This document shows, piece after piece, positions 2,658-49,031 of a DNA stretch of 64,000 nt (positions are counted from its first letter, which is position 1; each line of letters opens with the position of its first letter). Position numbers and translations under genes: made by a program. Under the pieces are notes generated by a model. The model was not told the DNA's origin. It worked only from the letters and a program-made list of their open reading frames with translations, and did not search any database. This DNA comes from a virus: IMG/VR virus record IMGVR_UViG_3300042542_004852. One strand, 5' to 3'.

Positions 2658-2659
2658 TT

Positions 2660-22396: not shown

Positions 22397-22398
22397 AA

Positions 22399-22764: not shown

Positions 22765-22765
22765 A

Positions 22766-25827: not shown

Positions 25828-25842
25828 ATATAGAATTACACT

Positions 25843-26058: not shown

Positions 26059-26059
26059 G

Positions 26060-28054
26060 TTATGGGAAATAAACCATTTGCGGAGAGCCGCTAAAAGAAG
26101 AAGCTCCACTAAATGCAGCGACATTATACCAGTAATAATTTCCTCCACCTAATATGCCATAATCTTCATAAGTGTTAGCTGAACCACTAAAAATTTCATA
26201 ATAATCAACGCTATCTTCAGAGCGATAAACAGAATATGAAACAGCATTAGTGGCTGAAGTCCAATTAATATCGCCAAATCCACCGCCATCAACGGCTGTA
26301 AAAGTAAACGATCCAAGCGAGTTTGGGCATTCGCTTACAGAACCATAACCATCAGTATAATAATACGTTGTGCCATCATATACAAAGTATCCAGTATAGG
26401 GCACTGTCGCATTTATATCAGAATAAGCAAAATCACTAACGTTAAAAGTACTAACGAATGTATAAACTGTCGCAGCGCTAGCGGCGCAATTTGTTCCCAC
26501 ATGAGAATAAATTGGTGATGGCTCTGGCGGTGGCGGTGATGGCGGTGGTGCTGGTGGTGGTACTGGCGGGGGAGGAGGAGGTGGCGGCGCTGGCGGTGGC
26601 GGTGGCGGTTGTGTTGTAGTCGTTGTTGTTGATGGACTCGCTTCTGGAGAATCGCAATAGTTTATAAAATCTGCTGTATTATCCCTTGTTAAAAGAAGCA
26701 AGCCATCACTTGATAATCCTGGACTTGCGCAGATAGAAGGAATGATTCGAGTAGCGCTTGCGTCATTAAAATAAAGATAATTGTCAAGATCAATGCCAGA
26801 ACCATCAATTGACTGCAATTTCAAACCCTCATAAGTGAACAACTGCGCACCTTCTTTTTCTGATCTTTGGCCCCACTTCATCAGCAAACCATTCTGCTCA
26901 TTGCAGGTAAAAGAAAAACCAAACTCAACAGTAAGATTAGAGGCGTAGTCAATGCTGTGACTATGAGATTCTAGCTTGGCATTGTCGATTTTTAAATATT
27001 TATTATTTGTTAAAAAGCCTTTGTAGTTTTGATCAGCATAACCAGAAAGAGTCCCAATGGATTGGTTAATATATTTTAACTCATTAGGGTCGATAAATTG
27101 AAGCTCAAGAGAGTATGATGGCTCATTGCTCATGGCTCCAGTAAGAATCGGCACTCCAGAATTGAGCGCCAAAGCTGTTGCAGAAATATTTAAATTGCCA
27201 ACAATTGGGAACTTAATTTTTTTATCATAAATGAAATCGCTGCCAAAACCATAGCTTGCTTCACGCTCAATTCCAATCGAAAAACCAATCGAGGAAATTG
27301 CCGCATCTGCCCAAGGAGAGATTTTAATTGATGGAACTTGCGGATTTTCTGTGACTATATTAAATGCTGTTGTTTGATATGTTGGCAAAATTGGTTGGCC
27401 AGTAACCGAAGTATTTAAGGCATTAAGGTTAGTAATAAACTCAGAATTATCAATGCTCAATTGAGCCGCTCCATCTTTATTGCCAACAGCAAGGTTAATA
27501 GCTGGAATGTTAACGAGATTCGAGGAAACCACTTGCATTTCCATGTTTACCGCTTCCATCTGAATTGAAGTTTTTGGAAGACTCGCTGCTGCAATTGCTA
27601 AGTTATAGTTGCTTAGAGTGCAGTTGCCAAAAGAAATCATTTCCAAACCATTTAAGTTGCCACGATCCTTAATTTGTTGGATTAAATCAAGTCCAAAAAG
27701 ATCACTCAGGATAAAATAAAGATTGCATGATTGACCGTTGCTTCCTTTAAAGATGGATTGGAAATCCCCCCATCCTTTAAAAAACATTCCGAGCAAGTTT
27801 TCGTTATCGAACGTGAGTGAGGAAATATAATCGAAAGAAAGAGAAACGGTTGGCGAAAAAGCCAAGCTCTCAACTGAGAATTCTTGACCTCCAATTTGTT
27901 TTGAACGAATGCGATTGCCTTGAACGTCAAACGCAAGATTATCAACAAAAGCAATTGGAAATAAACCTCTTTTATATGGCGCAAAATCTTCCACTGCTTG
28001 AAAAGCAGGACTTAAATCAGAAGCTAAGATGATTGAATTGCTTTTAATAATCAT
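26060..28054 (-). CDS. Tail-tube-like protein with poly-Thr/Pro linker and FN3-like C-terminal domain
   Basis: N-terminal part resembles 43548-44714; TTTTTTQPPPPPP linker; W.SATNAVSYSVYRS...YYWYNVAA. Confidence 0.65.
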   Translation of the reverse strand: MIIKSNSIILASDLSPAFQAVEDFAPYKRGLFPIAFVDNLAFDVQGNRIRSKQIGGQEFSVESLAFSPTVSLSFDYISSLTFDNENLLGMFFKGWGDFQSIFKGSNGQSCNLYFILSDLFGLDLIQQIKDRGNLNGLEMISFGNCTLSNYNLAIAAASLPKTSIQMEAVNMEMQVVSSNLVNIPAINLAVGNKDGAAQLSIDNSEFITNLNALNTSVTGQPILPTYQTTAFNIVTENPQVPSIKISPWADAAISSIGFSIGIEREASYGFGSDFIYDKKIKFPIVGNLNISATALALNSGVPILTGAMSNEPSYSLELQFIDPNELKYINQSIGTLSGYADQNYKGFLTNNKYLKIDNAKLESHSHSIDYASNLTVEFGFSFTCNEQNGLLMKWGQRSEKEGAQLFTYEGLKLQSIDGSGIDLDNYLYFNDASATRIIPSICASPGLSSDGLLLLTRDNTADFINYCDSPEASPSTTTTTTQPPPPPPAPPPPPPPPVPPPAPPPSPPPPEPSPIYSHVGTNCAASAATVYTFVSTFNVSDFAYSDINATVPYTGYFVYDGTTYYYTDGYGSVSECPNSLGSFTFTAVDGGGFGDINWTSATNAVSYSVYRSEDSVDYYEIFSGSANTYEDYGILGGGNYYWYNVAAFSGASSFSGSPQMVYFP

Positions 28055-30345
28055 GACATAAATATTCCAAATCGAGCATTAAATGGTCTGTGAAAACCAG
28101 AGTTTAAATTAAAAGAGGCATTATTAGAGAACACTAAGACCTCACCTAAATTTCCAATAAAATGTTTTGGCGATGCAGTTTCAGTTGCTCCCACAGATAG
28201 TTTAATGGCGCTTAAATTACTAACAGAAATTGTTCCAGTATTAGCGGTTCTGCCGTTAACATAACCAGTAAAATGTGTTGAATTACGAATAAAACCAATG
28301 GAATAATATTGATCAGTGTTGATACTGCCAGTTATAACATTAACATTGGCACCATCTCTAAATGTTACTGTTCCTCCGCTGTAAAACAAACCATAATCTT
28401 TTGATTGTGAAAAATTAATTAAGCACTGATCGCCAGTATTATTAAACTTTGCCAAAACAAAAGCTGATAAATAATCTCCAGAATTATTAATTCCACTTCC
28501 AGTCATGACAGACTGATTAAACCGATAAGTTGGTCTTGCAGCTATTTCGTTGTTTTGTTTTTCAACCCAAGTAGAAATAAATGGAGAATTATTTTGTAAA
28601 ACTTTATACTCTCCCAAAGAAGAATTCCAACTTCCGCTGAGTTTTATTCCATCTAGTCCATCAAAAGAATTGCTCAACCAGATGGGAAACACGCTAGAAT
28701 TTACATATCCAGTTGGAACAATTGGAAGAGTTAAATTTTTATAAAGCTGTGTCCAATTGCGATAATCTATTGATGCAACATATAAATAATCCAATCCAGA
28801 CTGAGGAATAGGATTTAACAAGGTAAAGTTAAGATCGCTGTTAATAGTTAAAACTCCAGATTGTCCAGAGCCATAAGCCAATGCTTTTAAAGCTTGAGTA
28901 AAATCAGTTTGGAAAATACGATTTGAATTCAAATTTAAACCAGTTAAAGCAAAACAGTTATCAATATTAATATTTCTAAGAGCATTTCCTGACAAATTAA
29001 TATTTTTAATTCCAGTCACTCCACTGCAATTAAAATTAGTCAATAAATTGGAACTCACATCAATATTTGAAATATTCTTAGCATTATTAAAGTTAATTTC
29101 CGTAATGTAGTTATCAGAAAAATCAATTTGTTCTATATTGGCTTTAGGATTAAAAGAAACATTTGAAAGATTTTGATATTTGCAATTTAAATACTCAATT
29201 GGTCGATAGATTTTTGTATCTCTTAGCGGCCAGTTTCCCCAATTGATATTGATGTTTTGGCCAGTTGACGAAAGTTTTTCGCCAGAGGTATCAACGACAC
29301 ATATTTCATCTGATGGCGTTAGCTGCATAGACAAACTATCAGAAACTGTAGATTGGCCCAAAATTAAACTAGGAGAATCTGTGAGTTTTTTTAATCCCAG
29401 TGGGTCTTCAACCAAGGTAACTCTTAAATTATTTGAATCTTGATAATTCCAAGAATGCGACCAGTCTTCAGCATAAAAGATTTTTGGTCTGTTATAGATT
29501 TTGGGCAAATTAAAAATAAATTTTCTATAGCCAAGTTTATTTTCCAAGAAATGCAACATTGACTTGAGTTTAAAATCAGAAATATTTTTATATTCTAAAG
29601 TTAATGATTGAATAGCATGGATATTTTGATTATCCTTGATTCTTTGAGAGAAGGAATTTTTAAATTCGTTTTTAGTATTTTTAGGCTGCGTTTCAACAGA
29701 CATGCCCAAATCATTTTCGTAAAAAAATTCTTGCGTCCAATAGTCTGAATTAATTGGAGAAGCTTCTAAAGAACTAACGTGATCTTCTTTGCAATAAAAA
29801 AAATTATCAAAAAAATTATCTGCCTGCAATGAAAAATATATTGGCTGATATTTTTGGTAAAATTGTCCAGTTTTCCAGCTAATGAAATCATAATTAACAA
29901 AAGACATTCCGCTCCAGTTTAAGAAAGACGAATTCCTCTCAACAGAAAATTTCAAATTAATACTGTACAAATTATTGTTTAGCATTTGAACGCCAAACGA
30001 ATCTACGAAACCAGTTAGACTTCTATATATCTGAGAAACATCATTAACGGCAAAAGCTCCAGTGCCACTTTGGCTTTCAAAAAAGTTGATTATTTTTTGA
30101 GCATCATTTTCATTAACATTAAAATTCAAATTACAATCGGCAACAATGTTGTTTAAAGTTATAGGAATTGAGGTATATGTATTATTGTTATACATATACT
30201 TATTTTTCTTACATAAAAAATTAATTGTTGAACCGTAACTTGGACTGAAATCAAAAGAATTTAAATTAGCAATACCCGACAGATTTCTATCTCGATTGTA
30301 GAAATATTGCGAATTAATTTGATAACCATTGTAAGCTGTTGACAT
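28051..30345 (-). CDS. Minor tail protein (tail-tip domains + LRR + LamG-like)
   Basis: Duplicated gpM-like units (FFESQSG / FLENKLG), LRR segment, GYVNG...FIGNLGEVLVF. Confidence 0.65.
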   Translation of the reverse strand: MSTAYNGYQINSQYFYNRDRNLSGIANLNSFDFSPSYGSTINFLCKKNKYMYNNNTYTSIPITLNNIVADCNLNFNVNENDAQKIINFFESQSGTGAFAVNDVSQIYRSLTGFVDSFGVQMLNNNLYSINLKFSVERNSSFLNWSGMSFVNYDFISWKTGQFYQKYQPIYFSLQADNFFDNFFYCKEDHVSSLEASPINSDYWTQEFFYENDLGMSVETQPKNTKNEFKNSFSQRIKDNQNIHAIQSLTLEYKNISDFKLKSMLHFLENKLGYRKFIFNLPKIYNRPKIFYAEDWSHSWNYQDSNNLRVTLVEDPLGLKKLTDSPSLILGQSTVSDSLSMQLTPSDEICVVDTSGEKLSSTGQNININWGNWPLRDTKIYRPIEYLNCKYQNLSNVSFNPKANIEQIDFSDNYITEINFNNAKNISNIDVSSNLLTNFNCSGVTGIKNINLSGNALRNINIDNCFALTGLNLNSNRIFQTDFTQALKALAYGSGQSGVLTINSDLNFTLLNPIPQSGLDYLYVASIDYRNWTQLYKNLTLPIVPTGYVNSSVFPIWLSNSFDGLDGIKLSGSWNSSLGEYKVLQNNSPFISTWVEKQNNEIAARPTYRFNQSVMTGSGINNSGDYLSAFVLAKFNNTGDQCLINFSQSKDYGLFYSGGTVTFRDGANVNVITGSINTDQYYSIGFIRNSTHFTGYVNGRTANTGTISVSNLSAIKLSVGATETASPKHFIGNLGEVLVFSNNASFNLNSGFHRPFNARFGIFMS

Positions 30346-31145
30346 TATAAATATCCTATGTAATTGTTAACAATACTCAGTGAACTATCAGAGCTTGAGG
30401 AAAGCTGCTGAGAAATTTCCTGAATATTAGGAATAGTTAAATGAATCATTTCACTATTATTATCTCTGCTTTTGACTGAAATATCAAATTGTTTTTGTTC
30501 TGCGCTAGTTAAAAAGAATTCGTGGTTTTCTAAAGTCATATTAGAAGCATCAAAAGTGAGCGAAGCAGAGACGTTAACTGGCGGCAAAAATACCACCTCA
30601 TCAACTTCTTTTGCGCTATCAAGAGAATAAATTCCTTGGCGATTAATTGAATACTCGAAAGAAAAACTTTTTACTCTATTGTTTGATGTGTTATCTCCAG
30701 AAACAGAGATTGACCTTGGGCTTGGAATAAAAAGACTTGGATGCTCTTGCGTTTTTAAAACTTCTAGCGATGGTTCTAATTTTCCATAAACAGTGATGCC
30801 GCAAGAGATTGAAGGAATCTCGCCAACCGTGCAGGAAATGCCATATTGGTTCAAGAACCCGCTTGTAAATCCATAAGATTTTCCGTTATAACTTAAACTG
30901 CCAGAAAAACTAGAGTCGCCAGTAAAAGCCAAAAGCGGGTCTTGGTACAACATGCTGCGCTGTAAAGATATTTCGGCTTGGATTGGATTGTTGAGATTAT
31001 AGCCATAAGTTGATCCTAGTGTTAAAGAATTTTCTAATGGGACACTGTAATTAATACTGATGCTCTCAACTCCAGAAAGTTGATAGCCATTAACAACAAA
31101 AACTTGATCGTATGGTTGAACTGAAAGTGATCGGTCTATGCTCAT
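30345..31145 (-). CDS. Tail-tube-like/distal tail protein
   Basis: Follows the tape measure gene; RQGIYSL...PPVNVSASLTF motif shared with the major tail protein. Confidence 0.6.
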   Translation of the reverse strand: MSIDRSLSVQPYDQVFVVNGYQLSGVESISINYSVPLENSLTLGSTYGYNLNNPIQAEISLQRSMLYQDPLLAFTGDSSFSGSLSYNGKSYGFTSGFLNQYGISCTVGEIPSISCGITVYGKLEPSLEVLKTQEHPSLFIPSPRSISVSGDNTSNNRVKSFSFEYSINRQGIYSLDSAKEVDEVVFLPPVNVSASLTFDASNMTLENHEFFLTSAEQKQFDISVKSRDNNSEMIHLTIPNIQEISQQLSSSSDSSLSIVNNYIGYL

Positions 31146-34100
31146 CGTGATTTTTCAAGCGATCCTCCTAGTCTTTTTTCTTGAGCGATAACATCTAACA
31201 CAGCTTGGCGGATTTTCTTTTGAAGCTCTCTATCTCTTTCATTCATATCCGCAGGGTTTTCTTCCTGTTGATCAGTGGATGAAACATTAACAACCACATT
31301 GCTCTGAGAAGAGTTTGAAGTTGTCTGAATCAGTTCGTCAAGTTTGGAAATTAAAGCTTGAGTCATTTCAGCAGAAGAGCTTTCGCTGCCAACTGATTGA
31401 CCGTTGTTTAACTTATTAAGGTTTTGAACACCAAGGCGTTGAGTGGCGCGATTGTTGAGAACAAATTCGCCACCAGTAAGCATCGCTGGAACGTCGTCTT
31501 TGGTTCCAGAGCCACCAGAAATTAAACCGCCAGAAGCGCGTTTTATATATGGATTATAACGACCATCTGTTGAGTAAGGGACTATCTCCTGTTGTATATA
31601 TGATGGTAATGGTAGAAGAGAATTGTCTGAGCCGCTGCCCTGAGCTTTCGGGCCTGAACTTTTATTGAAAAAACCTTTGAATTGAGAAAACAAATTGGCC
31701 AAACTAAATTTCTTCAAGAAAGAATTGTTAGTTTGTAAATTTGTGCTTTCTGTTATCGTAGGTTGTAGTGTTGACGACATTACTCCTTGAACTGACTGGC
31801 TTGCTATATTCCCACTCATTGCATTTTGCCTAGCGATAGCTAAATCAGAAAGCTGAGTTCCTGTTCCTTTAAAAATATTAGCTAATCCACCTTGACCACC
31901 TGCACCAGTGAACATGCCTTTTGCTCCAGCCATGAATTTTGCTCCAAAGCCAAAGGTTTTTCCACCAGCGGCAGCGGTTTTTGCACCAGAAGCAATAGCA
32001 TTTTTTGCTCCAGACAGCATGGCACTACCAGCAAAATTAAGAGCAGTAGATGCAACTGCTGAAATGATTGCCATTTGTAATTGTTTTTTACGAGCTTTTT
32101 TATCTTTGGCAATTTGATCCAACAATTGAGAGTATTCTTTTTCTTTTTGTAATCCTTGTAAATAAACTCCAAAAGCCTCATCTTTTGACTGCTGAACTCT
32201 TTCAAACATTGGGCTGTTCTCTCTGCCGAAAGAAGAGAGTCGAGCGCTTTCTGGCTCCAAGCCAACGCTTGCGCCACTCATTCCAAAGCCGCCCATGTAG
32301 TCATATTGACCACCAGTAAAGCTTTGGGTTGCAAAAGTGAGAAGTTCGTTTTTGCCAGTGATTGCGCCTTGGCCATAGTCGCCAGGAGTAAAGAATCCAC
32401 TACGGCCAGTTTGTGTTGGGAATGTTTCTGGATCAACTAAACCGCCAGTGGCGTAGCCGCGCATGTTGCCGCTGTTGATGGCATCAAGGAATCCTTTGCC
32501 GTATTTATTGACAGCAGATTTTTTCACAACATATTCGCCGCCCATGAGCATTGCTGGCACATCGTCTTTGGTTCCAGAGCCGCCTTTAATAAAACCGCCA
32601 GAAGCTTTGGTGGTTACACCGCCAGGGAAAGCTGATTTTAAAGCACTAAACCCAGTATTCGCCAAGCTTCCCAACCCACCAGTAACCATGTCAGCAAGGT
32701 TAGAAATGTTCTTGCGTGTGATTTCTTGGAAGAAACTTGTGGCAGCGTCAGTGAGCGCTGTTTTAAGGTCTTTCGCGCCACTGATTGCATCGTTCAATCC
32801 TTGAGCAAGATTAGAAGAGAACAAGTTCGGAATCTCTTCGCCAAGAGTTGTGCGATAGTTGTCAATGCGTTCTTGAATAGTGTCCAAGCCTTTTTCGAAG
32901 CCTCTTCCGCCGCTTCTTTGTTCTGCGGTTTGTTTATTTTTTAGATCAGCAAGCTCTTCAACTGTTGCTCCCTGCTCTTTAAGAGCTAAAAACTCTTTTA
33001 AATATTTTAATTCATATTCTAGTTCGCGGCGACGAGTGGCAGATTCAGCAGTGGCAAGTTCAAATCCTTTTTCGCGTAAAGCTGTTTGAGCAGCGATAGT
33101 GGCTAAATCTTGTTCTCCGCCCTGCTTTGGAGCTTTAGAAATAACGTCTTGCTTGATTAAATTAGAAGCAAGATCATTCGGGTTAGTGGATTGTAATGCT
33201 CCAAATTTAAGATCAGCAAGTTCTCTAGGAAGCGATCCAAAATAATCTCTAATACGCTGACTGAGCATGAGTGAAACATCTGACATCTCACCAATGCTTT
33301 GAGACAGTTCTTGTGTTGCTGTTTTTGCTTTTTCTGTCGCTACAGTAGCTCTATCATTAGCTAATGTTCCTTGTTGATTTAAATCAGTACCTTTTGCTGT
33401 AGATTTGTTATTTTCATCTTGAGCTTCGGTCATTTTTTCAGTAAGTTCTTTTCTTCGCTGTTCAATTTCAGCTAAACGTTTGGCGCTTTCAGGAGTTAAT
33501 CCTGATGTTCCAGGCTGAGGCAAACTATCTAATTGATCTTGTAAATTTTTAATTGCTAAATCTGCTAGTGCTTTGTCTTGATCAGTAAAATTCCCGTTTT
33601 TTATTTCTTGCGCATTTTTCAACTCTGACATTATTTTTTCCTTGGCGAGTGCGGTCAAAATAATACTAGAAAATTTTTCAGCACTGCCAACAATAGTAAC
33701 ATCAAACATGTCTGCTGTTAATTTAGTTTGCGCAAAAGCTAAATCAGAAGCTTTTTTTTCTGCATCTTGTATGTTTTTAGCAATATCATTTAACGATGTT
33801 TGTCCAATAAATTGTAAAGCTCCAATCTGTTCCTTTGTATTTTCACCTGTTAGTGGCGAGGTCAGGGCCGATTGTTGTGCATTATAGATTTGATTGCGAA
33901 TATCTCTTTTTTGATTAAAAGGTAAACTATCTGGTATTTCGCTTTGCAAGTTAGAAAGCTCGTCAGAAATAGTTTTTCTAAAATCAGTAATGACATCTTG
34001 TATTTCTCTATCTCTAGTAACAGAAACCCTGTCCTTTTGTTTGGAAAGTTTTGCCGATTCACTTAGGCCAATTAAACTTCTTTCAAATTTAGTATCTTCA

Positions 34101-37100
34101 ATTTCTCTACGAGTTTTTAAAATTTCTTGATCAAGCCCAAAAGTTTTTTCTAAAGTTTTTACTTGTTTTTCTATAGCTTTAGTAAGTTTTTCTTCCGCAA
34201 GTGAGCGTTGATCAATGAGAGTTTTATTAGCAAAATCTAATTTTGCCTGAGCTTGTTTTAGTTTTAACTGTCTATCTAATTCAAGATTTGTTTTCTTATT
34301 TTGTTCGTATTCTTTCGCCGCTGCTTCAGGATCAATAAATGATATTAATCCTTTTTCTTGTATTAATCTAACTAACTCTTCTGCGGAACCCTGTGATTTT
34401 GCAAGAAAATCCTGAACTTCCTTTAAGCCAGATAGCGTTTTTTCATCAACTGCGCTACTGCCAATACCACTTGTCAATTTTTCAGATACGCTAGTGTTAA
34501 TTTTTTCTAATTGAGCAGCAAGATTTTTAGCTTTTTCAGCTCCAGTGTCTAACTCAATTTCTTTTAAAGAATTCTGAAACTCTCCGAAACTTTTTGCAGT
34601 ATTTGAAAGAGAAGAATCTAATTCCAAAAGAGTTTTATTTGAAAATTTAGAAAACGCGGTATCTAAATCAATTTTTAAAATGCTATCTCTAAGAGCGTTG
34701 TACTCAGAAGCTAACGATGCAACTAAAATTTCATTTTCTTTTAATCTATTAATTACAGATTTAGTCTGTTCGCTTGATAATTTTTGAGCATCTGCGAAAT
34801 CCTTTGCTCTTTTGATATTTTCTCCAATAATAACTGATTCTTTTAAGAATATATTTAATCTATCTTGATTTTCCTGTGTAGATAAATCTATTTTTCTTGC
34901 TCCGCCTTTGGAAAGATTCCCTTGGATAAAAGCCTCTGTTTGTCCAGCTATGTTTTCTTTATTTATTCCTCTGGCAGCATATCCAGCATTGATAGACTGA
35001 ATTACTTTTGTAATTTCATCCTCTGCCAAGGTATTGCCTGCGGCGTTTTCATAGGTTTTTCCTGCAAAAGAAACTTGATCCCTTAATCCAAGAGAAGTAA
35101 TTTCTCTTCCTATTTCTGTCCAAGTTCTACTATTAAAACCTTTATTAGCTACATTTAGAGCCTCTTTACCAAAATCGGTAAGAGAAGAAGTGACTTCATT
35201 TACTGATTGATCAAGCCTGTCAAAAGCAACTGACATGTCTTTTTTGAAGAATCCTTTAACTCCTTCGCCAATAGTATTTGCAATATAAGCGGCAGTTAAA
35301 ACTTGTCCAACAACAGGAATAGCTTTTGTAGTTGCTGCGCCAATTTTTGATAAACGACCACCTATGCCACTAATAGCACCAGCAATAGGCTTGGCTCCAA
35401 GTATTTTTTTGAATGGTGCGGATACTTTATCTCCTAAGCCTTTTAAAATATCTTGACCACCTTTAAAGCTGGATAAAAAGAAATACATTTGAGACAATCC
35501 GCCAATAACCTGAGTCAAGCTTTGTCCAAATTTTGCAGCAGTTCCTCCAGCCTCTTCCAAACCAGTAGTTAAAAATGTCATAGCGCTTTGAGCAATAATT
35601 AATTTACCAGCTAAATCAGCAAAGCCCTCTTTCGCTTCTTTTGGAGCTTGTACAAGCTGATTTTGAGCAGCTTGAAAAGCTTTTAAACCAGCACCAGTCT
35701 GAGTATTTAATTTATTTTTATTAACTTGAATGCCTGTTACGAATTTTTCAAGTTCCTTAATCGCATCTTCTTGCGTGATTTTATTTTTAGCTAATTTTTT
35801 ATTAATTTCATCAATTAAATTTGCAAAACCTGTAAGTTGTTGATTGACTGATTTTGGTAAAGATGCTCCAAAAGCTTTTCGATCAATTGGCGCAGGAGCA
35901 AAATTCGGCACAAATCCATTTGCCGCGCCATAAAGCTTTGGATTCACGCCTTCCTTGCGTGCGCGAGCGATGCCTTGGAAACCGCCAGCAGGCTCGTCTC
36001 TTCGATTGGCCACCATTAACCCCATTGGGTTCATGGATGATTTTAAAGCAGCGCTTTGATCAACATAGATTTGTGAATCTGAAAGACCAGCGCTTTTTTC
36101 GCGAGCAATAGCTTGCTGTAAAGCAGCAGCAGCAAAGTTTGGAACGTAACCAGCGGAGGCATTAAACTTTTGTATGCCACCAGCTTTTTTTAGTTTTTCA
36201 ATACTTTCTAGTGAAACTTTTCCTTCGAAGTTTCTTGCAATTGCAAAATTAAAAAGTCCTTTTGATGCGCTTGTGCTCTGTAAAGTTCTCAAAACATCTT
36301 TTTCACTGCGAATTTGAGAAGTTGGGCCTGGCGCTTTAGTTGGTTTTATTAATTTTTCAACGTTTTTTTGACTTTGTTCTTTATAAATTTTAGATGCAAA
36401 ACTTTCTCTAGTAGAATCATTATCGGCGTATTTAGCCTCAACAAAATCAACAGTATTAGGAATTCCAAAAAATTTATTAAATTTTGAGTTGGCTACTCCT
36501 TTAAAGTCAAAAAGAGCATTTGAATTTCTCTCTGATTGAGCTTTTAATAGTTCTTCGTCTTGAAGAGCGGAGCTAATAGCACTTTCAAAAATAGAACCAA
36601 CCAAACTTGGAACAGAGCCTTTATTAGATAATTGAGTAGCCGCTATTGGAGATAAAGGTTTACCAATAAGATCATTCGAGTAGTCAGAAGCATCTTGCAA
36701 AGCTAAATCGGTATATTTTTTTTCTAAGCTTTGAGAGCTGTATTTTTGATTAAATTTTTGCAGCTTACTTGTATTTTTCAAACTCTCAATATCTTGAATT
36801 CCATAAATATCAGCTAAGTAGCTGACTCTTTCGCCGTCTCTAGGTTTATAAGAAATTAATTGTTTTTTTCTAGCGCCTCCTAAATCATTAACAAGCATTG
36901 CGTACTTGTCGCCAGTCTTTTCAACCCCTAAATCTTCTGAAGCTAAGACTTTTTCTTTTGAGCGCAATATTTCAAATCTCTTCTTTGATGTAGCTGGGTC
37001 TGCTAATTGAACGCTTTTTTGCAAAGCTCTAATAAATTTAAAATTATTTTTTTCAATTTTTAAAGACCCGCTCAATTGAGCGGCACTTCTAACATCTCCT

Positions 37101-39379
37101 CCTGTTAAGCCTTGAATTTGTCTTACTTTTCTGCGGTTTTCTATCTCTTCATTAGAGACGCCTAAATAAGTTATTTTACCTCCAGAACGCAATGATGCAT
37201 TAAGTATTGATTCAAATTTTTTACTTAATCCTGTTTCGGTTTTGCTAAGTCCAGCAGCAGATAAAATTGTAAAAGAACTAGCTCTTCTAACATCTTCAAG
37301 AGAAGAAATAAAAGTGCCTAAACTTTTGGCATAGGTGCTTTTACCTGCTCCAGAAGGAGCAACTAAAACATCTTTTTTCTTGGTTGATGCTAAAACATTT
37401 TCAAGAATTAGTTTTTTATTTTCTCCTAAAAAACGATCTGAATCATAAATATAATTGCCAGCAAAATTAGGAACAAATCCACCAGCCGCACTAATCTTCT
37501 TTGCTCCCGCTGGCAAGCCTATGCTCTTCACCATGTCTTGATTAAAGATGGCAGAACCGCCGCCAGCATAATTAGGAACAATGTACTCGCTTGTATTGGC
37601 AATCATTGTGCCGCGTTTGCCGCCGCCAAACGCAAAGTTTGGAATAGAAACAACTTTGGAACTTGGCGAGGCTCCACCTACGCCACGACGAACATCTGAA
37701 GCTTCTTGCGCTGGCAAGTATCCGCCAGCAGCTTTGCTTTTGCGCTGTAATCCTTCAGATGTTGCGCGGTATCCTTGAGCATAAACTGGTGAAGCGATGC
37801 CTCCAGCCACACCCTGAATAGTTTGCATAGCAGCGGCCTGTTGATTCAAAAGCCCTAAGAATTTTAACGCTTGTGCATTTTGTCCGCCCTGAGTACTTAA
37901 AATAGCGTTTGCAATACCTTGATTTCTTATCAGTGTTTGAACAATAGATTCTTGCACCAGCTTTTGATCAGCAGCAGCTTTTCCAATACCAAAAAACGCT
38001 TTTAAGCTTTGAAGGCCAAATTTAGCTAAATCAAGAGACAGCTTACCAATAATTGCCAAGAAAATTCCAAGACCAGGACCGCTTAATACACCACCAATAC
38101 CTTTAACAAAACCCTTGGCAAAATTAGAACCAAGATCGTCTCCTTGTAAGAGACTGTTCGCGCCCTCTAAGAAAGAATTAATTCCATCTAAAAGACCGTT
38201 AAGATTATCAGTTAATCCTAATTCTCCTAATATGCTTCCTAATTGCTTACCAGTATTAGCGACCTTATTAAGAATAGCATCAAGAGATTGATTTAATTTT
38301 TCATTAGCAACATAAGCTTCATTTGTGGCTCCTGCTGATTTTTTAGTCGCTTCAGCAGCAATGCTATTTTTTTTAGTCAAATCACCAACAAGGGCAATTA
38401 ATTGGTTAATTTGGAAAGTTCCAGCTATGTCTTTAAAAATTCCACTTTGAGTAAGTTTGCTAAATCCTTGTACGTCATTAGCAAGATTTTGTAAAATCTT
38501 CGATGCTGGAAGAATTTCACCTGATAAATCTTGAACTATAATACCAACCCCTTTTAATTTTTCTAATTTATCCACTTCTCCCAATCGGGTAAAAATAGTT
38601 TTAAGGGAGTTTCCAATTACAGCACCACCGCGAGATGTGTCAGCTTGTAAAGCAGTGACAATACCAGCCAACTCATCAAATGTGACTCCAGCCTGTTGTG
38701 CCGCAGCACCAGTTCTTTCAAAAGCTTGTATCAAGTCAGCAGAAGAAACTTTGAAGGCTTGGTCAACCGCAGCAAGTTTATTTAAAATTCGAGAAGCTGA
38801 AAGACCTTCTCTTGCAAATGCGCTAACTGCCGCACTCAAACCTTCAACTGATTTTGTTGTTTCTAAACCAGTAGTTCTAGTTAATATAAGGGCATCTTTT
38901 GTTCTGCTCAAAGTATCCTCTAATTTCAAACCTTGTCGAGAAAACTCTAGAGCAGCTTTGGAAACTTCACTAAAACTTTGACCAGTCTCTTTTGCAATAT
39001 TAAAAAGACCTTGGCTAAGCTCTTTTGTTTTGCCAGTGAATTGATCACCAACAACAGAGATTGCAGTAATAGCCTTCTCCACTTCAATTGTGGAGCTAAC
39101 AAGACTTTTAAAAGCGTTTGTTACAGCGTTAACAACACCAACAGAAGCTCCGAAAGCAAGAACGCGAGCATTTGCAGCGTCGAGAGACTTTGTGAACTCA
39201 TCTGCTTGGCCAGTTAAACGGCCAAGGGGCTGAGAAAGAGAGCTGAATGCTTTTGCGCCACTTGCCCCGCCCAAATTAAATTTAACTTTATTAACAGCGC
39301 TTTGACAAACACCTTGTAAATAGGTAGCTGCTTGATCTGCGTTTTGAAACTGTGCGTTAAGAGGGACATTTATAGCCAT
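31142..39379 (-). CDS. Tail tape measure protein (TP901-like core) with internal cargo domains
   Basis: 2745 aa; AALEFSRQG, RGGAVIGNSLKTIFTRL TMP core, coiled coils, ASGG..GSGTKDDVPAML..GE motifs. Confidence 0.92.
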   Translation of the reverse strand: MAINVPLNAQFQNADQAATYLQGVCQSAVNKVKFNLGGASGAKAFSSLSQPLGRLTGQADEFTKSLDAANARVLAFGASVGVVNAVTNAFKSLVSSTIEVEKAITAISVVGDQFTGKTKELSQGLFNIAKETGQSFSEVSKAALEFSRQGLKLEDTLSRTKDALILTRTTGLETTKSVEGLSAAVSAFAREGLSASRILNKLAAVDQAFKVSSADLIQAFERTGAAAQQAGVTFDELAGIVTALQADTSRGGAVIGNSLKTIFTRLGEVDKLEKLKGVGIIVQDLSGEILPASKILQNLANDVQGFSKLTQSGIFKDIAGTFQINQLIALVGDLTKKNSIAAEATKKSAGATNEAYVANEKLNQSLDAILNKVANTGKQLGSILGELGLTDNLNGLLDGINSFLEGANSLLQGDDLGSNFAKGFVKGIGGVLSGPGLGIFLAIIGKLSLDLAKFGLQSLKAFFGIGKAAADQKLVQESIVQTLIRNQGIANAILSTQGGQNAQALKFLGLLNQQAAAMQTIQGVAGGIASPVYAQGYRATSEGLQRKSKAAGGYLPAQEASDVRRGVGGASPSSKVVSIPNFAFGGGKRGTMIANTSEYIVPNYAGGGSAIFNQDMVKSIGLPAGAKKISAAGGFVPNFAGNYIYDSDRFLGENKKLILENVLASTKKKDVLVAPSGAGKSTYAKSLGTFISSLEDVRRASSFTILSAAGLSKTETGLSKKFESILNASLRSGGKITYLGVSNEEIENRRKVRQIQGLTGGDVRSAAQLSGSLKIEKNNFKFIRALQKSVQLADPATSKKRFEILRSKEKVLASEDLGVEKTGDKYAMLVNDLGGARKKQLISYKPRDGERVSYLADIYGIQDIESLKNTSKLQKFNQKYSSQSLEKKYTDLALQDASDYSNDLIGKPLSPIAATQLSNKGSVPSLVGSIFESAISSALQDEELLKAQSERNSNALFDFKGVANSKFNKFFGIPNTVDFVEAKYADNDSTRESFASKIYKEQSQKNVEKLIKPTKAPGPTSQIRSEKDVLRTLQSTSASKGLFNFAIARNFEGKVSLESIEKLKKAGGIQKFNASAGYVPNFAAAALQQAIAREKSAGLSDSQIYVDQSAALKSSMNPMGLMVANRRDEPAGGFQGIARARKEGVNPKLYGAANGFVPNFAPAPIDRKAFGASLPKSVNQQLTGFANLIDEINKKLAKNKITQEDAIKELEKFVTGIQVNKNKLNTQTGAGLKAFQAAQNQLVQAPKEAKEGFADLAGKLIIAQSAMTFLTTGLEEAGGTAAKFGQSLTQVIGGLSQMYFFLSSFKGGQDILKGLGDKVSAPFKKILGAKPIAGAISGIGGRLSKIGAATTKAIPVVGQVLTAAYIANTIGEGVKGFFKKDMSVAFDRLDQSVNEVTSSLTDFGKEALNVANKGFNSRTWTEIGREITSLGLRDQVSFAGKTYENAAGNTLAEDEITKVIQSINAGYAARGINKENIAGQTEAFIQGNLSKGGARKIDLSTQENQDRLNIFLKESVIIGENIKRAKDFADAQKLSSEQTKSVINRLKENEILVASLASEYNALRDSILKIDLDTAFSKFSNKTLLELDSSLSNTAKSFGEFQNSLKEIELDTGAEKAKNLAAQLEKINTSVSEKLTSGIGSSAVDEKTLSGLKEVQDFLAKSQGSAEELVRLIQEKGLISFIDPEAAAKEYEQNKKTNLELDRQLKLKQAQAKLDFANKTLIDQRSLAEEKLTKAIEKQVKTLEKTFGLDQEILKTRREIEDTKFERSLIGLSESAKLSKQKDRVSVTRDREIQDVITDFRKTISDELSNLQSEIPDSLPFNQKRDIRNQIYNAQQSALTSPLTGENTKEQIGALQFIGQTSLNDIAKNIQDAEKKASDLAFAQTKLTADMFDVTIVGSAEKFSSIILTALAKEKIMSELKNAQEIKNGNFTDQDKALADLAIKNLQDQLDSLPQPGTSGLTPESAKRLAEIEQRRKELTEKMTEAQDENNKSTAKGTDLNQQGTLANDRATVATEKAKTATQELSQSIGEMSDVSLMLSQRIRDYFGSLPRELADLKFGALQSTNPNDLASNLIKQDVISKAPKQGGEQDLATIAAQTALREKGFELATAESATRRRELEYELKYLKEFLALKEQGATVEELADLKNKQTAEQRSGGRGFEKGLDTIQERIDNYRTTLGEEIPNLFSSNLAQGLNDAISGAKDLKTALTDAATSFFQEITRKNISNLADMVTGGLGSLANTGFSALKSAFPGGVTTKASGGFIKGGSGTKDDVPAMLMGGEYVVKKSAVNKYGKGFLDAINSGNMRGYATGGLVDPETFPTQTGRSGFFTPGDYGQGAITGKNELLTFATQSFTGGQYDYMGGFGMSGASVGLEPESARLSSFGRENSPMFERVQQSKDEAFGVYLQGLQKEKEYSQLLDQIAKDKKARKKQLQMAIISAVASTALNFAGSAMLSGAKNAIASGAKTAAAGGKTFGFGAKFMAGAKGMFTGAGGQGGLANIFKGTGTQLSDLAIARQNAMSGNIASQSVQGVMSSTLQPTITESTNLQTNNSFLKKFSLANLFSQFKGFFNKSSGPKAQGSGSDNSLLPLPSYIQQEIVPYSTDGRYNPYIKRASGGLISGGSGTKDDVPAMLTGGEFVLNNRATQRLGVQNLNKLNNGQSVGSESSSAEMTQALISKLDELIQTTSNSSQSNVVVNVSSTDQQEENPADMNERDRELQKKIRQAVLDVIAQEKRLGGSLEKSR

Positions 39380-39400: not shown

Positions 39401-40381
39401 TTACACCTTTTGTCCCATAACTTCCATCATTTGTTCCATATTTAATTGTCCATTATTTTTCTTCAACAGTTCCGAAAGCGAAACTTTCTTAGCTTCTGGA
39501 TCAACAAAATCTAAATCTTCTTTTTTAGAGTTAAAGAGAGCAGTGGCAGAATTATCTTTCGCAGAGTTTGAGAGCTTTGTTTTGTTTCGGCTGCTTTCGG
39601 CGAAATCTATGAGGGCTTTTGGGTCTTTGCGAATAGAATCTGGAATCTTGTCAACGTTTTGGAAAATGTTTAAAAACATTCTGCCATAAGCAATAACTTT
39701 GAGTTGATACAGCGAAAACTTAATCAAAGGCTTGGCGAAAAAATCCCAAGGCTTCTCACAGTGGCTTAAATACAAGCTAAAACAGTCTTGTAAAACAGCA
39801 TGCTGAATATTCTCGTCAGAGAATTTGTTCATGATATTGTAGTAAGAGTCCATGAGTGACGAAAGCTCACTGTTATCTAGTTCGCCAAAGTCTTCATCTG
39901 AAAAAAGCAGTTTTGTAGTTTGCTCGTCGCTGTATAGAAGATTTCTTAAAAAATCTTCGTTGGATCGGTTGTTCGCATACTCTGTGGCAGTCTTGCCTAC
40001 GAGTTGTTTTTTTTGACTTTTTAATTCAAAAAGTTTAAATTTTTCTTCATCAATTAATTTTTGATGACCTTCTTTTTGAGAAGGCAGCATCAGCTTGCTC
40101 TTTGTCTTCTCTAGGTTTTGCACGAAGCTTTCTAGCTCTAAGATTTTATTTTCATCATCTTTGCTCCAAGTGCCATCTCTGTCTAGTCGCGCTAATACAT
40201 CTTTTTCTTCTTGGATGCCTTTTGCAATGGCTCGATTTTTATGTTGTTCGAAATTATTATTTAAGAACTCTTGATCCTTTAATGAAAAATGGCGCAAAAA
40301 CACGGTTTGATCTTTAAAATCAAACCGTGTGTATCCATCAAAAATCTCGTTAACAATCTCTATGTAAAGATTGTCATTCAA
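39401..40381 (-). CDS. Putative tail assembly chaperone
   Basis: Position immediately upstream of the tape measure gene. Confidence 0.55.
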   Translation of the reverse strand: MNDNLYIEIVNEIFDGYTRFDFKDQTVFLRHFSLKDQEFLNNNFEQHKNRAIAKGIQEEKDVLARLDRDGTWSKDDENKILELESFVQNLEKTKSKLMLPSQKEGHQKLIDEEKFKLFELKSQKKQLVGKTATEYANNRSNEDFLRNLLYSDEQTTKLLFSDEDFGELDNSELSSLMDSYYNIMNKFSDENIQHAVLQDCFSLYLSHCEKPWDFFAKPLIKFSLYQLKVIAYGRMFLNIFQNVDKIPDSIRKDPKALIDFAESSRNKTKLSNSAKDNSATALFNSKKEDLDFVDPEAKKVSLSELLKKNNGQLNMEQMMEVMGQKV

Positions 40382-41202
40382 GACTTAGCTTTTTTCTTTT
40401 TTGGCGAATCTTCTTTTGGCAACTCTTCTTTTGGGGACTCTTCTTTCTGGGGAGTTTCCGAATCTCCTTTGTCTTCAAACAAGCCATCGAAATCTTCTTT
40501 ATTGGAAGTTTGGTTATAAAACCAAAAAGCTGCAACATTGGAAATCTTTCGGGCGATCTCAAAATAAAGAGGGTCTTCTTGCTCTTCTTTTTGATAGTAG
40601 TCTTCGAGACGATCTTCAAAGTCTTCGCCACTAAAATATGGCTTTGGCTTGTCTTGATTCTCTTTTTGAATATAAGTGAGATTGATGATGTACCAAATAA
40701 GAAGACGATTTTGAGCCTTCATGTCGGCAGTGTGATCAAAGAGAGACTGATAAGCCATTTCAGTCTTGACAATTTGATCGCGAACCTGAGCCATCTCAAG
40801 AGAGACAGCTTCAGTTTTCTTTTTGCGATTATCGTCAGTCTTGTTGACGGTTTCGTTTTCAGTATATTCTCTCTGTAGTTCCAAGAGCTTTTGATAGTTC
40901 TGGTAAAGAGTTTTTGCTTCTGTTTCGCTCATCAAGCCGCCAGTGTCAGAATACTTTTTGACAAGCATTGCTTTGGTAAGAATGCCTTTTTTAATGCAGC
41001 GGGACATTTCCACGCTATATTCCAAATCAGCTTCTTCGATTTGACGGCGCGAAGGCTTCTTGAGAAACACCTTGATGGGAGATTTCTCGCTTACTTTTTT
41101 AGTTACCTTCACTTCATTGCCTTGTTCGTCGTTTGAGACGGACTCAACAGGTTTCTCGACTGTTTCATAAACAGTAAAATTGTAGATGTCTTTGAATTCC
41201 AT
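40378..41202 (-). CDS. Putative tail assembly chaperone
   Basis: Position; helical, with charged C-terminal PKEE repeats. Confidence 0.5.
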   Translation of the reverse strand: MEFKDIYNFTVYETVEKPVESVSNDEQGNEVKVTKKVSEKSPIKVFLKKPSRRQIEEADLEYSVEMSRCIKKGILTKAMLVKKYSDTGGLMSETEAKTLYQNYQKLLELQREYTENETVNKTDDNRKKKTEAVSLEMAQVRDQIVKTEMAYQSLFDHTADMKAQNRLLIWYIINLTYIQKENQDKPKPYFSGEDFEDRLEDYYQKEEQEDPLYFEIARKISNVAAFWFYNQTSNKEDFDGLFEDKGDSETPQKEESPKEELPKEDSPKKKKAKS

Positions 41203-44782: not shown

Positions 44783-45280
44783 TTATAGGTAACCGCCAGG
44801 ATAATAGGAGTATGGAAACCCGCTTCCAGACTGATAGCCAGCTTCAATGCCGCCAAGTTGACGAGGTTCAGCCTTGTAGCTATTATAAGCATAAACAAGG
44901 TCTTTAAGTTTCATCTGAGAATCTGTAGATAAACCGCGATAAACTTTACTCACTTCGTTGCGATTAACAAACGTGATTGAATTATCGCCATCAGAAACAG
45001 AAAGAATATTGTCGCCATTATTACTAGATGCCAAGATGCCGCGAAGAGCATTTCGAGCTTGGCGTGAATAAAAATTGCTTAAATAAAGCTCTTTGAAAAT
45101 AGACTTCTCTTCTTCTCCCAAGGAGGGATCAGAACCACTAAAATTTGTATAAAGCAAATTATTAAGAAGCCCTAAATTAGTCGAAAACCAACCGCTGATT
45201 TGAGTGAAAGTGGTTGTGCTAGCGTCAGAGCCAAACTCTACAGAAAAAACTTCGTGTGCTAAATCAGAATATACGCTCAT
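44783..45280 (-). CDS. Putative head-tail adaptor
   Basis: Downstream of the capsid genes; ILSVSDGDNSITF. Confidence 0.5.
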   Translation of the reverse strand: MSVYSDLAHEVFSVEFGSDASTTTFTQISGWFSTNLGLLNNLLYTNFSGSDPSLGEEEKSIFKELYLSNFYSRQARNALRGILASSNNGDNILSVSDGDNSITFVNRNEVSKVYRGLSTDSQMKLKDLVYAYNSYKAEPRQLGGIEAGYQSGSGFPYSYYPGGYL

Positions 45281-45645
45281 TAAAACTCTCCTAAGATTTT
45301 AAGGGTTTTTTGGTGCTGTGGATTGTTTGGATCAAGCTGCACAGACTTGGTTGATAGAGAAAGCATTTTGCCTGTTGCATTAAGGTTATAGCTGCGACAC
45401 TGCTTGGCAAGAGCCTTCTTTAGTTGTGGCTTTTGCAAGTAAGGGCTAAGACCAACACGCATAGCTAGAGATTGCATTTCAGCATAATTCATTTCAGCCA
45501 AGCGGTCTTCAAACACTTGTGGGTCAGTGGTCTTAAATGGATTCACTTCTTGCACGCCTAGAATTTTTTCTAGCTTCAAAACCTTTTCCTTGTATTCTTT
45601 GCCGTTGATGTGTTCAATGCTATTTAATTCGTTCTGTAGATTCAT
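45280..45645 (-). CDS. Hypothetical protein
   Basis: ORF downstream of the capsid terminator. Confidence 0.65.
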   Translation of the reverse strand: MNLQNELNSIEHINGKEYKEKVLKLEKILGVQEVNPFKTTDPQVFEDRLAEMNYAEMQSLAMRVGLSPYLQKPQLKKALAKQCRSYNLNATGKMLSLSTKSVQLDPNNPQHQKTLKILGEF

Positions 45646-45679
45646 ATATTATAATACAGTTAAACTTTTAAAAGTAAAC

Positions 45680-45710
45680 AAAAAAGGGACTGCCCTTTCG
45701 AGCAGTCCCT
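45680..45710 (-). terminator. Intrinsic terminator after the major capsid gene
   Basis: Minus strand AGGGACTGC-TCGAAAGG-GCAGTCCC-TTTTTT. Confidence 0.85.
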
Positions 45711-45725
45711 GATTTAAGCAGTGGA

Positions 45726-46838
45726 TTAGACAATCACACCGAGGAGAGCACGGTTGTCGAGAACCATACGACCTTCTTCGAGAGAACCGAAGTAGCCAAT
45801 CTTGTTCTGACGGATGCTGTATTGGTCGTCAGCGATGAGAGTGAACTCAGAACCGCTTTCGCTGTCGATGGCAGTGGCGCGGATGAGAGACTCACGGCCA
45901 CGGTCAAGACCAACGGCGATTTCTTGAGTAGCTGGGTTGAAGCTACCGCCATAAACAGTGTCGAAGATGGTGTTGTACTTTTGATTTTCGCCGAACTCAT
46001 TGATTACCATGAGGGAAACACCATAGAACTCTGGAAGACCAGCGGAGTTGTATAGAGCCATACGCATTTCATCAGGAGCAGCGATACCGTTTGAGCGGTA
46101 GTCGGAACCGCCTAGAGCAGCAGCGCCAGCGCCCTTGGTGTTGATGGGGTTGTAAGCCATTGAGCGAATAGAGTTTTCCAACTCAGGGCTGATGATGAGA
46201 TCAGTGATGCCACGGGCATTAGCAGCGCCTTCTGGAGTACCCTTAGAGAAGGAAGTGTTGATGCGGCGAGCACGGGTGATGAGGTTGTTGAAGTCTTGTA
46301 GCAAGAAGCTGCCAGCAGTGGTAGCATCAATGATGTGGGAAAGACCATTGGTGCTAGCATTGGCAAGAGCAGTCATAAGAAGGTTTGCGCTGGTGCGCTC
46401 CTGCTTAAGAAGGATTTCTTGAGCCATGCGAGTGAAGGTTTTGCTAACTACGTCCATGCGGCTTTTGGCTGCATAGCGACGATCAAAGCTGAGAGCAGAG
46501 TCGAGAGTGTAGGTAGCAATCTTCATTTCAGAAACAGTCGGAAGGACTTGGTTCTGTGGAAGACCACCAGCAACGCTTTGGCTGTAAACAGTGATATAGT
46601 CCTCGTCGGAAATATCATAGTAAAGGTCAAGCGGGATGGAAGGATTGTCGTCAGCGTTGAACTGAAGCTGAGTAAATAGATTACTTAGAGTCGGAGCGTT
46701 GTTGATGACTTCGGCGAGAACAGGGCCGATGAACTCGGCAAGAGCTACTTGAGCTTCGTAAGCGACCTGACGGTTGCGTGAAGCCATAGCCTTGATTAGT
46801 TCGATTTGTTCTGGAGTTCTTTTGAGAGAGATTTTCAT
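45726..46838 (-). CDS. Major capsid protein
   Basis: 370 aa, strong codon bias, order portal-protease-decoration-capsid-terminator; ITDLIISPE, LPEFYGV HK97-like features. Confidence 0.8.
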   Translation of the reverse strand: MKISLKRTPEQIELIKAMASRNRQVAYEAQVALAEFIGPVLAEVINNAPTLSNLFTQLQFNADDNPSIPLDLYYDISDEDYITVYSQSVAGGLPQNQVLPTVSEMKIATYTLDSALSFDRRYAAKSRMDVVSKTFTRMAQEILLKQERTSANLLMTALANASTNGLSHIIDATTAGSFLLQDFNNLITRARRINTSFSKGTPEGAANARGITDLIISPELENSIRSMAYNPINTKGAGAAALGGSDYRSNGIAAPDEMRMALYNSAGLPEFYGVSLMVINEFGENQKYNTIFDTVYGGSFNPATQEIAVGLDRGRESLIRATAIDSESGSEFTLIADDQYSIRQNKIGYFGSLEEGRMVLDNRALLGVIV

Positions 46839-46865
46839 ATTAAATTGTTTCCTCCTTGGTTAAGA

Positions 46866-47483
46866 TTACATGCGAAGACCGATCACGGCGAAGCCGCCAG
46901 CGAATTGATCTGTGGTGGATTGGGAAGTGCGTGAGCCAGTGCCAAGGACAAGACCAAGCTTGCCAGCGTCGGAGTGGAGACAGCCAGTGACTTTACCAGC
47001 ATTAGCAGAAAGCTTGAAGCCGCTGCCAACAGTGAGAGTGCCATCAATAGCATTAGCGCCAACAGAGAACATACCGCGAGTGGCAACTGGAACAGCTTGT
47101 CCAGGAAGCACGCACATGAGTTCTTCAGCCTTTTGGCGATAGTAAAGAAGCTTTTCACCGTTTTCGTCAAACTTTGCAGTCTGGCGAAGAGTGATGCCAA
47201 GGCAGTTGGTGGTGTCGCCAGAGGCGGCAGGAGTCACCTTGAGGTTGACGGATGGGTAGCTGTTAGCGCCAACAAACGGATAGTCGGTTTTGCCGAGGTA
47301 GCTGTCGGTAGCGTAGCTTACGGGGTCTAGGTCAAAGTTTCCAGCGGAAACCTTAACAAAAACACCAGCATCACCACTGCCAACGCCAGTTACGGATTCG
47401 TTGACGGCAGCATCTGCTAGTGCGTACAGATTGATGACATCTTGGTCATCATATTGACGGAATGGGAGTAGTCTGGTAGCCAT
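46866..47483 (-). CDS. Capsid decoration/cement protein
   Basis: Gly-rich beta protein between scaffold and capsid; high-expression codons; VPVATRG. Confidence 0.65.
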   Translation of the reverse strand: MATRLLPFRQYDDQDVINLYALADAAVNESVTGVGSGDAGVFVKVSAGNFDLDPVSYATDSYLGKTDYPFVGANSYPSVNLKVTPAASGDTTNCLGITLRQTAKFDENGEKLLYYRQKAEELMCVLPGQAVPVATRGMFSVGANAIDGTLTVGSGFKLSANAGKVTGCLHSDAGKLGLVLGTGSRTSQSTTDQFAGGFAVIGLRM

Positions 47484-47497
47484 ATTAGTTAGTTAAA

Positions 47498-49030: not shown

Positions 49031-49031
49031 A

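Follow-up and report, generated by a model that had tools for sequence, protein, structure and literature searches.

A stretch of viral DNA of 64,000 nucleotides (IMG/VR virus record IMGVR_UViG_3300042542_004852), called the window throughout, carries on its minus strand a gene, P0001, for a tape measure protein (TMP). The N-proximal third of this protein holds a series of modules separated by copies of one short peptide, the PNFA motif. The motif, the modules and their exchange among related TMPs are the subject of this report. That the open reading frame (ORF) encodes a tape measure protein had been claimed in an earlier note on the same DNA, and profile searches bear this out. The Pfam domain PF10145 matches aa 129-320 with 95.9 bits against a gathering cut-off of 33.2 (E 3.7e-27), and eight PHROG tape-measure families match the protein, the best of them at E 6.7e-55. 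Judged from these matches, the ORF is a TP901-type tape measure protein. The features of the locus are collected in Table 1, where residue i of the TMP lies at window position 39379-3(i-1).

Table 1. Features of the tape measure protein gene in the window, with the lytic domains of some related proteins
Feature	Residues (aa)	Window position	Strand	Remarks
TMP gene P0001		31142..39379	minus	from ORF list and translation; 2745 aa
PF10145 PhageMin_Tail (TP901-type minor tail/TMP) domain	129-320	38420..38995	minus	Pfam
Motif cluster	550-640	37460..37732	minus	AAGGYLP, SIPNFA(FGGG), 14 aa, IVPNYA(GGG), 27 aa, AGGFVPNFA
AAGGYLP (motif-related)	550-556	37712-37732	minus
Motif copy SIPNFA	579-583	37631-37645	minus
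Motif copy IVPNYA	600-605	37565-37582	minus
Motif copy 3, AGGFVPNFA	632-640	37460-37486	minus
Module A	641-~800	36980..37459	minus	P-loop, predicted kinase-like; YDSD start, Walker A APSGAGKST, NRRKVR and GDVR arginine-rich segment
Walker A VLVAPSGAGKST	671-682	37334..37369	minus
Decayed A/B joint KEKVLASED	808-816	36932..36958	minus	aligns with AGGFIPNFA of closest relatives
Module B	~817-1074	36158..36931	minus	conserved G-x-[ILVM]-F-E at aa 928-932, D958, E981-x-K983, S993, K997; fold unmatched
GSIFESAI	928-935	36575-36598	minus
LFDFK	956-960	36500-36514	minus
FVEAK	979-983	36431-36445	minus
Motif copy 4, SAGYVPNFA	1075-1083	36131..36157	minus	in low-confidence model stretch 450-459
Module F1	1084-1152	35924..36130	minus	small alpha/beta module, last in array in all relatives
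Motif copy 5, ANGFVPNFA	1153-1161	35897..35923	minus	in low-confidence model residues 526-546
Lysozyme	1862-1986 of P0059
GH19 (chitinase-like)	2111-2163 of P0071
SLT	1991-2077 of P0038
VanY	3280-3362 of P0097
NlpC/P60	3636-3709 of P0031

A repeated ten-residue peptide

PN[FY]A occurs five times in the window TMP. The repeated G(F/Y)VPNFA motif and the related AAGGYLP, IPNFAFGG and VPNYAGG, which had been read from the sequence earlier, were all found where they had been placed. Could such a repeat arise by chance? A search of 5.8 billion proteins with TMP aa 527-1193 gave 566 TMPs of about 2100-4400 aa at E <= 1e-3, and the counts of relatives given below rest on the best 119 of these 566 matched proteins. 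Each of the 119 other relatives listed carries 3-9 copies of the motif at very different spacings, and no copy of G[FY][IV]PN[FY]A lies in any other frame of the 64-kb window. The motif is therefore not a chance recurrence. The consensus drawn from 431 distinct copies is A-[AS]-x-G-[FY]-[IV]-P-N-[FY]-A, ten residues with variable flanks. These copies were collected with a pattern that fixes G, P and N, and the same three residues are also present in every copy listed among the relatives. The motif cluster at aa 550-640 is the best conserved part of the region compared, and this stretch is 82-99% identical in many relatives which share nothing downstream of it.

There is a further question, whether the motif is conserved as protein or as DNA. 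The codons of the five copies differ (CCA AAC TTT GCG, CCT AAT TAT GCT, CCT AAT TTT GCT, CCA AAC TTT GCT and CCG AAT TTT GCT), and the longest nucleotide run common to them is about 12 nucleotides (nt). Since the codons differ between copies, the motif is, as far as these sequences go, conserved as protein and not as DNA. This disagrees with the earlier suggestion that it is an anchor for recombination. The GC content is 0.47-0.50 in the motif clusters and 0.32-0.36 in the 433-aa insert between copies 3 and 4. The description of this insert as AT-richer thus holds only in relation to the two GC-rich motif clusters and not in relation to the rest of the gene, much of which has the same GC content. 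For that reason low GC was rejected as a mark of foreign DNA in the insert.

Exchange of modules at the peptide

What lies between the motif copies in related proteins? Cutting the 119 relatives at the motif gave 360 modules of at least 30 aa, which form 38 clusters, and the architectures vary in the number, the kind and the order of modules. By strict profile search, module A of the window TMP was found in 76 of the 119 relatives and module B in 55; 29 proteins have the two in the order A-B and 10 in the order B-A. Module F1, of 70 aa, is present in all 119 (twice in 8 of them) and always stands last in the array. Individual relatives give a closer view of the junctions. P0005 is without module A and shows a clean gap from motif to motif. 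P0037 is 99% identical to the window TMP over aa 1-640, and the alignment ends at the last residue of motif copy 3; compared at protein level, it resumes only at aa 1054 with 62% identity, and two unrelated cassettes lie between. At DNA level, homology to the listed relatives repeatedly stops at nt 1917-1922 of the gene (aa 640), resumes at aa 1076-1079 and stops again at aa 1159-1162, and F1 plus its two motifs forms an island of 73-93% nucleotide identity (aa 1076-1161). In a comparison of 46 related genes, 70 of the 162 internal DNA homology breakpoints (43%) fall in motif windows that take up 2.3% of the gene length, although breakpoints at module borders are also an expected residue of selection for intact modules. 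In these sequence comparisons the peptide is the exact place at which relatives gain, lose, reorder and replace modules. The comparison of related TMPs, which the earlier note had proposed as a check, thus returned different modules between the motif copies, with the exchange junctions at the motif.

The longest relatives, P0031, P0050, P0063, P0097 and P0103 (2787-4358 aa), carry two arrays, each with F1 at its end. Judging from their sequences, these proteins seem to have doubled a whole array unit or to have picked up a second one. Lytic Pfam domains of relatives were considered as possible content between PNFA motifs and rejected on their positions (aa ~1860-3710; Table 1). They lie in the C-terminal third, outside the motif-fenced array.

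The window TMP also holds a second repeated element, ASGG[FL]I.GGSGTKDDVPAML.GGE[YF]V, which occurs twice at 31448-32618 (TMP aa ~2255-2645), with DDVPA at 32552-32566 and at 31484-31498. DNA comparison matches the two copies with each other, both inside one relative and from one relative to another (78-86% identity), and C-terminal homology blocks begin at them. In the fragmentary relative P0153, a similar GEFV element and a GFANGGPV joint stand directly before a module-A homologue. Another type of joint may do the same job as the PNFA peptide.

Predicted structure of the array

The array was modelled by AlphaFold as a single chain from aa 625 to aa 1170 with 43 aligned sequences, and the mean predicted local distance difference test score (pLDDT) is 82. 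Confidence is low only in model residues 1-14, 384-387, 450-459 and 526-546. The second of these stretches is a four-residue loop in module B, and the three long ones hold motif copies 3, 4 and 5. As each long low-confidence stretch contains a motif copy, the motif in this model is a flexible linker between folded domains, at least in the single chain, and the modules between are shown by the prediction to fold on their own. An AlphaFold run on the insert had been suggested as a check before, and its outcome is a set of separately folding modules bracketed by the motif.

The insert had been taken as a single one of ~430 aa. It is indeed bracketed by the motif and folds separately, but it consists of two modules, A followed by B, and the motif that divides them has decayed here. 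In P0003 and P0004, the closest relatives with the same order of modules, a copy AGGFIPNFA divides A from B (alignment of P0001 with P0003, P0004, P0040 and P0065). At the corresponding joint of the window TMP the model confidence falls to 60-73. Sequence searches with the whole 433-aa insert against Pfam, PHROGs and the PDB gave nothing above threshold. By exhaustive HMMER search its first ~150 residues match as a discrete unit, with hits to many TMPs and also to free-standing proteins 151-159 aa long, and the remaining ~250 residues, which are module B, match separately. The free-standing homologues of module A start at the YDSD or FDSD that follows the motif and end where the next motif would begin. 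One scan of the genomic context of their genes found nothing, and a profile scan found only another giant ORF.

What kind of protein is module A? A Walker A motif had been noticed in the insert before, and it was found within what is predicted to be a P-loop kinase-like domain, where APSGAGKST at aa 674-682 follows the pattern [AG]xxxxGK[ST]. All the free-standing homologues keep its P, G, G and K, and Walker A together with the arginine-rich lid is conserved even in these free-standing genes. The model of module A has a pLDDT of about 85-97. In VIA comparison it matches the zeta toxin 6epg_B with Z 8.5 (147 residues aligned, root-mean-square deviation 3.6), where Z values near 8 count as background by the tool's own statement. 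Further matches are adenylate kinase 7owe_E (Z 7.6), polynucleotide kinase 4gp6_A (Z 6.6), AvrRxo1 (Z 6.5) and PezT (Z 6.5), so that the top matches are P-loop kinases throughout. The best Foldseek match is an adenylate kinase as well (E 3.4e-3). Pfam found in the window module only a sub-threshold AAA_30 (13.7-15.2 bits, cut-off 27). The generic AAA model PF00004 is passed by P0145, one of the free-standing homologues scanned, with 28.9 bits (threshold 21.2); none of the Pfam kinase families reaches its threshold on any of them. Our reading, based mainly on the model, is that module A is probably a small kinase-like P-loop nucleoside triphosphatase (NTPase).

For module B, a 35-sequence alignment (A2) with 17-55% identity was obtained. 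G129, F132, D159 and K184 are invariant in it, and E133, F172, S194 and K198 are each present in at least 90% of the sequences. The conserved positions in the window TMP are G928, F931, E932, D958, E981-x-K983, S993 and K997, and more divergent B-like modules retain the same residues. Folded alone by AlphaFold with the 35 sequences, module B has a pLDDT of 86. Its model places E932 in a helix, D958 before a short strand and E981-x-K983 in a strand, with a helix between the D strand and the ExK strand, and both pattern and placement fit a PD-(D/E)XK site. In the wide VIA search no nuclease was found, the best Z being 5.7 on a helical hairpin only. The sole lead in the ESM Atlas is a sub-threshold neighbour annotated Tox-REase-7 (score 0.75). 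The earlier note had supposed that the insert holds a kinase or NTPase and a nuclease; a P-loop kinase-like module and the E/D/(E/D)xK series were found, and the nuclease fold was not matched.

Module F1 is modelled with a pLDDT of about 75-83 over its first half (helix H458-472, strand E480-484) and of 53-69 over the rest (strand E497-501, helix H511-518). The ESM Atlas gave no lead for it.

Neighbouring genes and occurrence

The TMP ORF is the longest gene of the tail module, and the large terminase lies upstream on the same strand (51553-53415). Two genes downstream of the TMP, a 764-aa ORF (28051-30345) matches a PHROG minor tail protein family. Fourteen of the 20 neighbouring ORFs scanned against PHROGs have no match, so that this phage lineage stands far from cultured phages. 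In the presumed structural block (20039-31145 and 44783-51504, minus strand), 10 of the 13 ORFs scanned are without a PHROG match at E <= 1e-3. Directly upstream of the TMP stand two ORFs of 326 and 274 aa (39401-40381 and 40378-41202, minus strand) with a 4-nt overlap and no PHROG match; by position they are candidate tail assembly chaperones. When 185,579 species genomes were scanned for the motif cluster, the sole match was a 29.5-kb contig (L047, CALFSW010000038.1) of a Verrucomicrobiales metagenome-assembled genome, which may be a hint to the host or a mis-binned phage contig.

Proposed function of the array

What would such an array be used for? It is established that TMPs leave the tail ahead of the DNA and that their head-proximal N-terminal part adjoins the DNA end. 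In the window TMP the order is motif cluster, module A, module B and F1, and the joints are formed by the ten-residue peptide in flexible linkers. By analogy with other TMPs, this N-proximal array would leave the tail last, next to the DNA end. Because a TMP exits before the DNA with its N-terminal part beside the DNA end, the modules would ride into the host and act early, and because an ATP-using module requires it, they would act in or near the cytoplasm. The peptide would then be an obligatory functional joint, which might be a cutting site, or a docking or hinge element for carrying folded or refoldable modules on the ruler. We put a probability of roughly 0.6 on the proposal that the N-proximal third of the TMP is an array of autonomous modules (cluster, A, B and F1), joined by the ten-residue peptide and carried into the host. 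A wider claim is offered only tentatively, and we would sooner bet against it than for it: that the PNFA peptide is a dedicated cut-or-dock signal, and that the TMP of a large clade of uncultured phages is a plug-and-play rail, on which any module between copies of the peptide would be loaded into the tail, for effector cassettes (kinases, nuclease-like domains and many unknown folds) that are traded among its members and delivered ahead of the genome.

Several points weigh against the proposal that delivered modules are strung on the TMP. A protease was found neither in the TMP nor among the 20 ORFs around it that were screened against PHROGs, and 14 of these ORFs have no match at all. Folded domains of 150-280 aa in three copies would be too large to lie side by side in the tube lumen of a siphophage. 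Searching 50,697 cultured-phage records with TMP aa 527-1193 by tblastn gave no match. In the segment SLKIEKNNF of the window module A, IEKN replaces APLN, which is invariant in the free-standing homologues and stands as APLN or APTN in close relatives. Going by sequence, module A of the window may be inactive or impaired, and the replacement together with the decayed A/B joint may mark a module that is losing function. The model of module B matches no nuclease or other fold in a Foldseek search of the PDB and BFVD, no Pfam family was found across its 35 members, and its profile has no sequence match in the PDB. Its reading as a nuclease, which comes from the pattern of conserved residues, is unproven for these reasons; it is a lead and not a result. 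Furthermore, F1 is universal and B is common, so that a part of the array may be for tail assembly or channel formation instead of being cargo.

How would the peptide work as a joint? It might be a protease site in a polyprotein, where a protease of phage or host, or self-cleavage, frees A-B, F1 and the pieces of the ruler, in the virion or after injection. A conserved short peptide was found at each domain junction, and its repetition in disordered linkers is the pattern of viral polyprotein sites. The ends of the free-standing A homologues coincide exactly with the module borders, and the loss of one site would just fuse two modules, which is tolerated in the window TMP. The TMPs T5 pb2 and lambda gpH are processed (PMC10038345). 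Set against this, neither the TMP nor the screened neighbour ORFs contain a recognised protease domain, and cutting at three copies that lie only 14 and 27 aa apart, within 65 residues, would yield small peptides to no purpose. The cleavage motifs of phage maturation proteases such as T4 gp21 and phiKZ gp175 have two or three defined residues, and ten nearly invariant residues are longer than such motifs. Cutting would also detach the N-terminal 640 aa from the ruler, and P23-45 gp96 functions uncleaved (PMC10770324). On balance we consider cleavage at the peptide rather unlikely. The other explanation is that the peptide stays uncleaved, as a short linear motif that binds a partner (the tail assembly chaperone, the tube lumen, the terminator or portal ring, or other TMP chains) or as a hinge; the modules would be kept unfolded or threaded, the ruler would continue across them, and covalent attachment would be kept. 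The lack of any protease found is in its favour, as is the precedent of gp96 for an uncleaved TMP with an enzyme. The length of the motif, its strong conservation, its aromatic residues and a G, P and N that look invariant are what a binding peptide would show. The motif is also flexible in the monomer model, and the tandem triple copy at aa 579-640, the best conserved segment, suits multivalent binding to a symmetric ring. On the other hand the motif is dispensable at the A/B joint of the window, and a single-chain model is blind to binding. We regard docking or hinging as possible, though rather less likely than not.

Need the modules be cargo at all? B, F1 and perhaps A could be parts for tail assembly or for forming a channel, such as DNA-end binding parts or a trans-envelope conduit, whose diversity would reflect adaptation to the host envelope. 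This agrees with F1 standing last in every one of the relatives, with B-like modules being common and matching no enzyme fold, and with the window A being without an otherwise invariant segment. However, A is a P-loop domain by prediction, with Walker A and the arginine-rich lid kept even in free-standing genes, and in B the D and the K are invariant and the E is nearly so among sequences of 17-55% identity, as is usual for active sites. Moreover, A and B are missing from many relatives, so neither of them is needed for a working tail. A purely structural role thus appears unlikely to us. It might also be asked whether the motif is kept for the sake of its coding sequence, which would provide homology for swapping cassettes. 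DNA homology breakpoints do pile up at the motif codons, and in P0037 the identity switches exactly after the motif. Yet the five copies use different codons with a longest common run of about 12 nt, and conservation applies to the amino acids, also where the third base of the codon is free. The same breakpoints at the borders would result from selection for intact modules, and we hold a recombination anchor at DNA level to be very improbable.

If the modules are delivered as proposed, long non-contractile tails would offer a simple and widespread way of injecting proteins, and dozens of unannotated module families would be likely to act in the first seconds of infection. Nature would also supply a design rule for putting cargo into phage tails: "flank it with the peptide". 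One short peptide makes a sharp experimental handle, for mutation and for cleavage or binding assays.

Comparison with known systems

Full-text literature searches with the motif strings, by themselves or combined with 'tape measure', turned up no relevant paper. TMPs that contain one embedded enzyme are known; the papers searched do not describe exchangeable modules arrayed across a whole family and joined by one invariant peptide. Among known proteins, module A resembles the zeta toxin, AvrRxo1, polynucleotide kinase and adenylate kinase (6epg, 4z8q, 4gp6, 7owe), with which it would share the same P-loop kinase core (Z 8.5-6.5 over 115-147 residues). Module A also has a Walker A and an arginine-rich segment in common with this group. 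It differs from these P-loop kinases in showing only 8-19% identity in the alignments, in its smaller size of about 150 aa and in passing no Pfam kinase family threshold.

Polyvalent proteins are variable arrays with 2-15 domains per polypeptide which are delivered with the invading DNA and for which processing that frees the domains has been proposed (Iyer et al. 2017, PMC5512222). The clade of the window TMP has in common with them variable domain arrays and mosaic exchange of domains; delivery is something that we infer for the TMPs. The hallmarks of polyvalent proteins, namely MuF, the MPTase/zincin peptidase and ArdC-N, were not found in the window TMP, where Pfam finds only PF10145, and the paper on polyvalent proteins neither mentions tape measure proteins nor describes a common junction peptide (PMC5512222).

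Among TMPs, gp96 of Thermus phage P23-45 is a protein of 5002 aa with an N-terminal virion RNA polymerase, and a metallopeptidase and membrane segments lie further along the protein (PMC10770324). Virions contain the polymerase within the uncut TMP, and 5 minutes after infection it is found on the phage DNA (PMC10770324). As in the window TMP, the position for an enzyme is the N-terminal part of a giant TMP, and the gp96 enzyme acts in the cytoplasm. Unlike the window TMP, gp96 has one fixed enzyme and no repeated junction peptide, no exchange of modules is reported for it, and it has no sequence relation to the modules. The T5 protein pb2 fills the tube as a trimer. A cut after R1127 divides its ruler from its enzyme domain, and the two parts leave the tail at infection, perhaps with refolding (PMC10038345). 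The TMPs of T5 (pb2) and of mycobacteriophage TM4 have embedded cell-wall hydrolase domains or motifs (PMC10038345; PMC1796659). An enzyme inside the ruler is the point of likeness here, since relatives of the window TMP carry lysozyme, GH19, SLT, VanY or NlpC/P60 domains C-terminally; the window TMP itself has no recognisable wall hydrolase, PF10145 being the only Pfam domain in the whole protein. The enzymes of pb2 and of the TM4 protein act on peptidoglycan, near the tip end. In contrast, the array of the window TMP is N-proximal, its modules are not wall hydrolases, and it is fenced by a repeated peptide.

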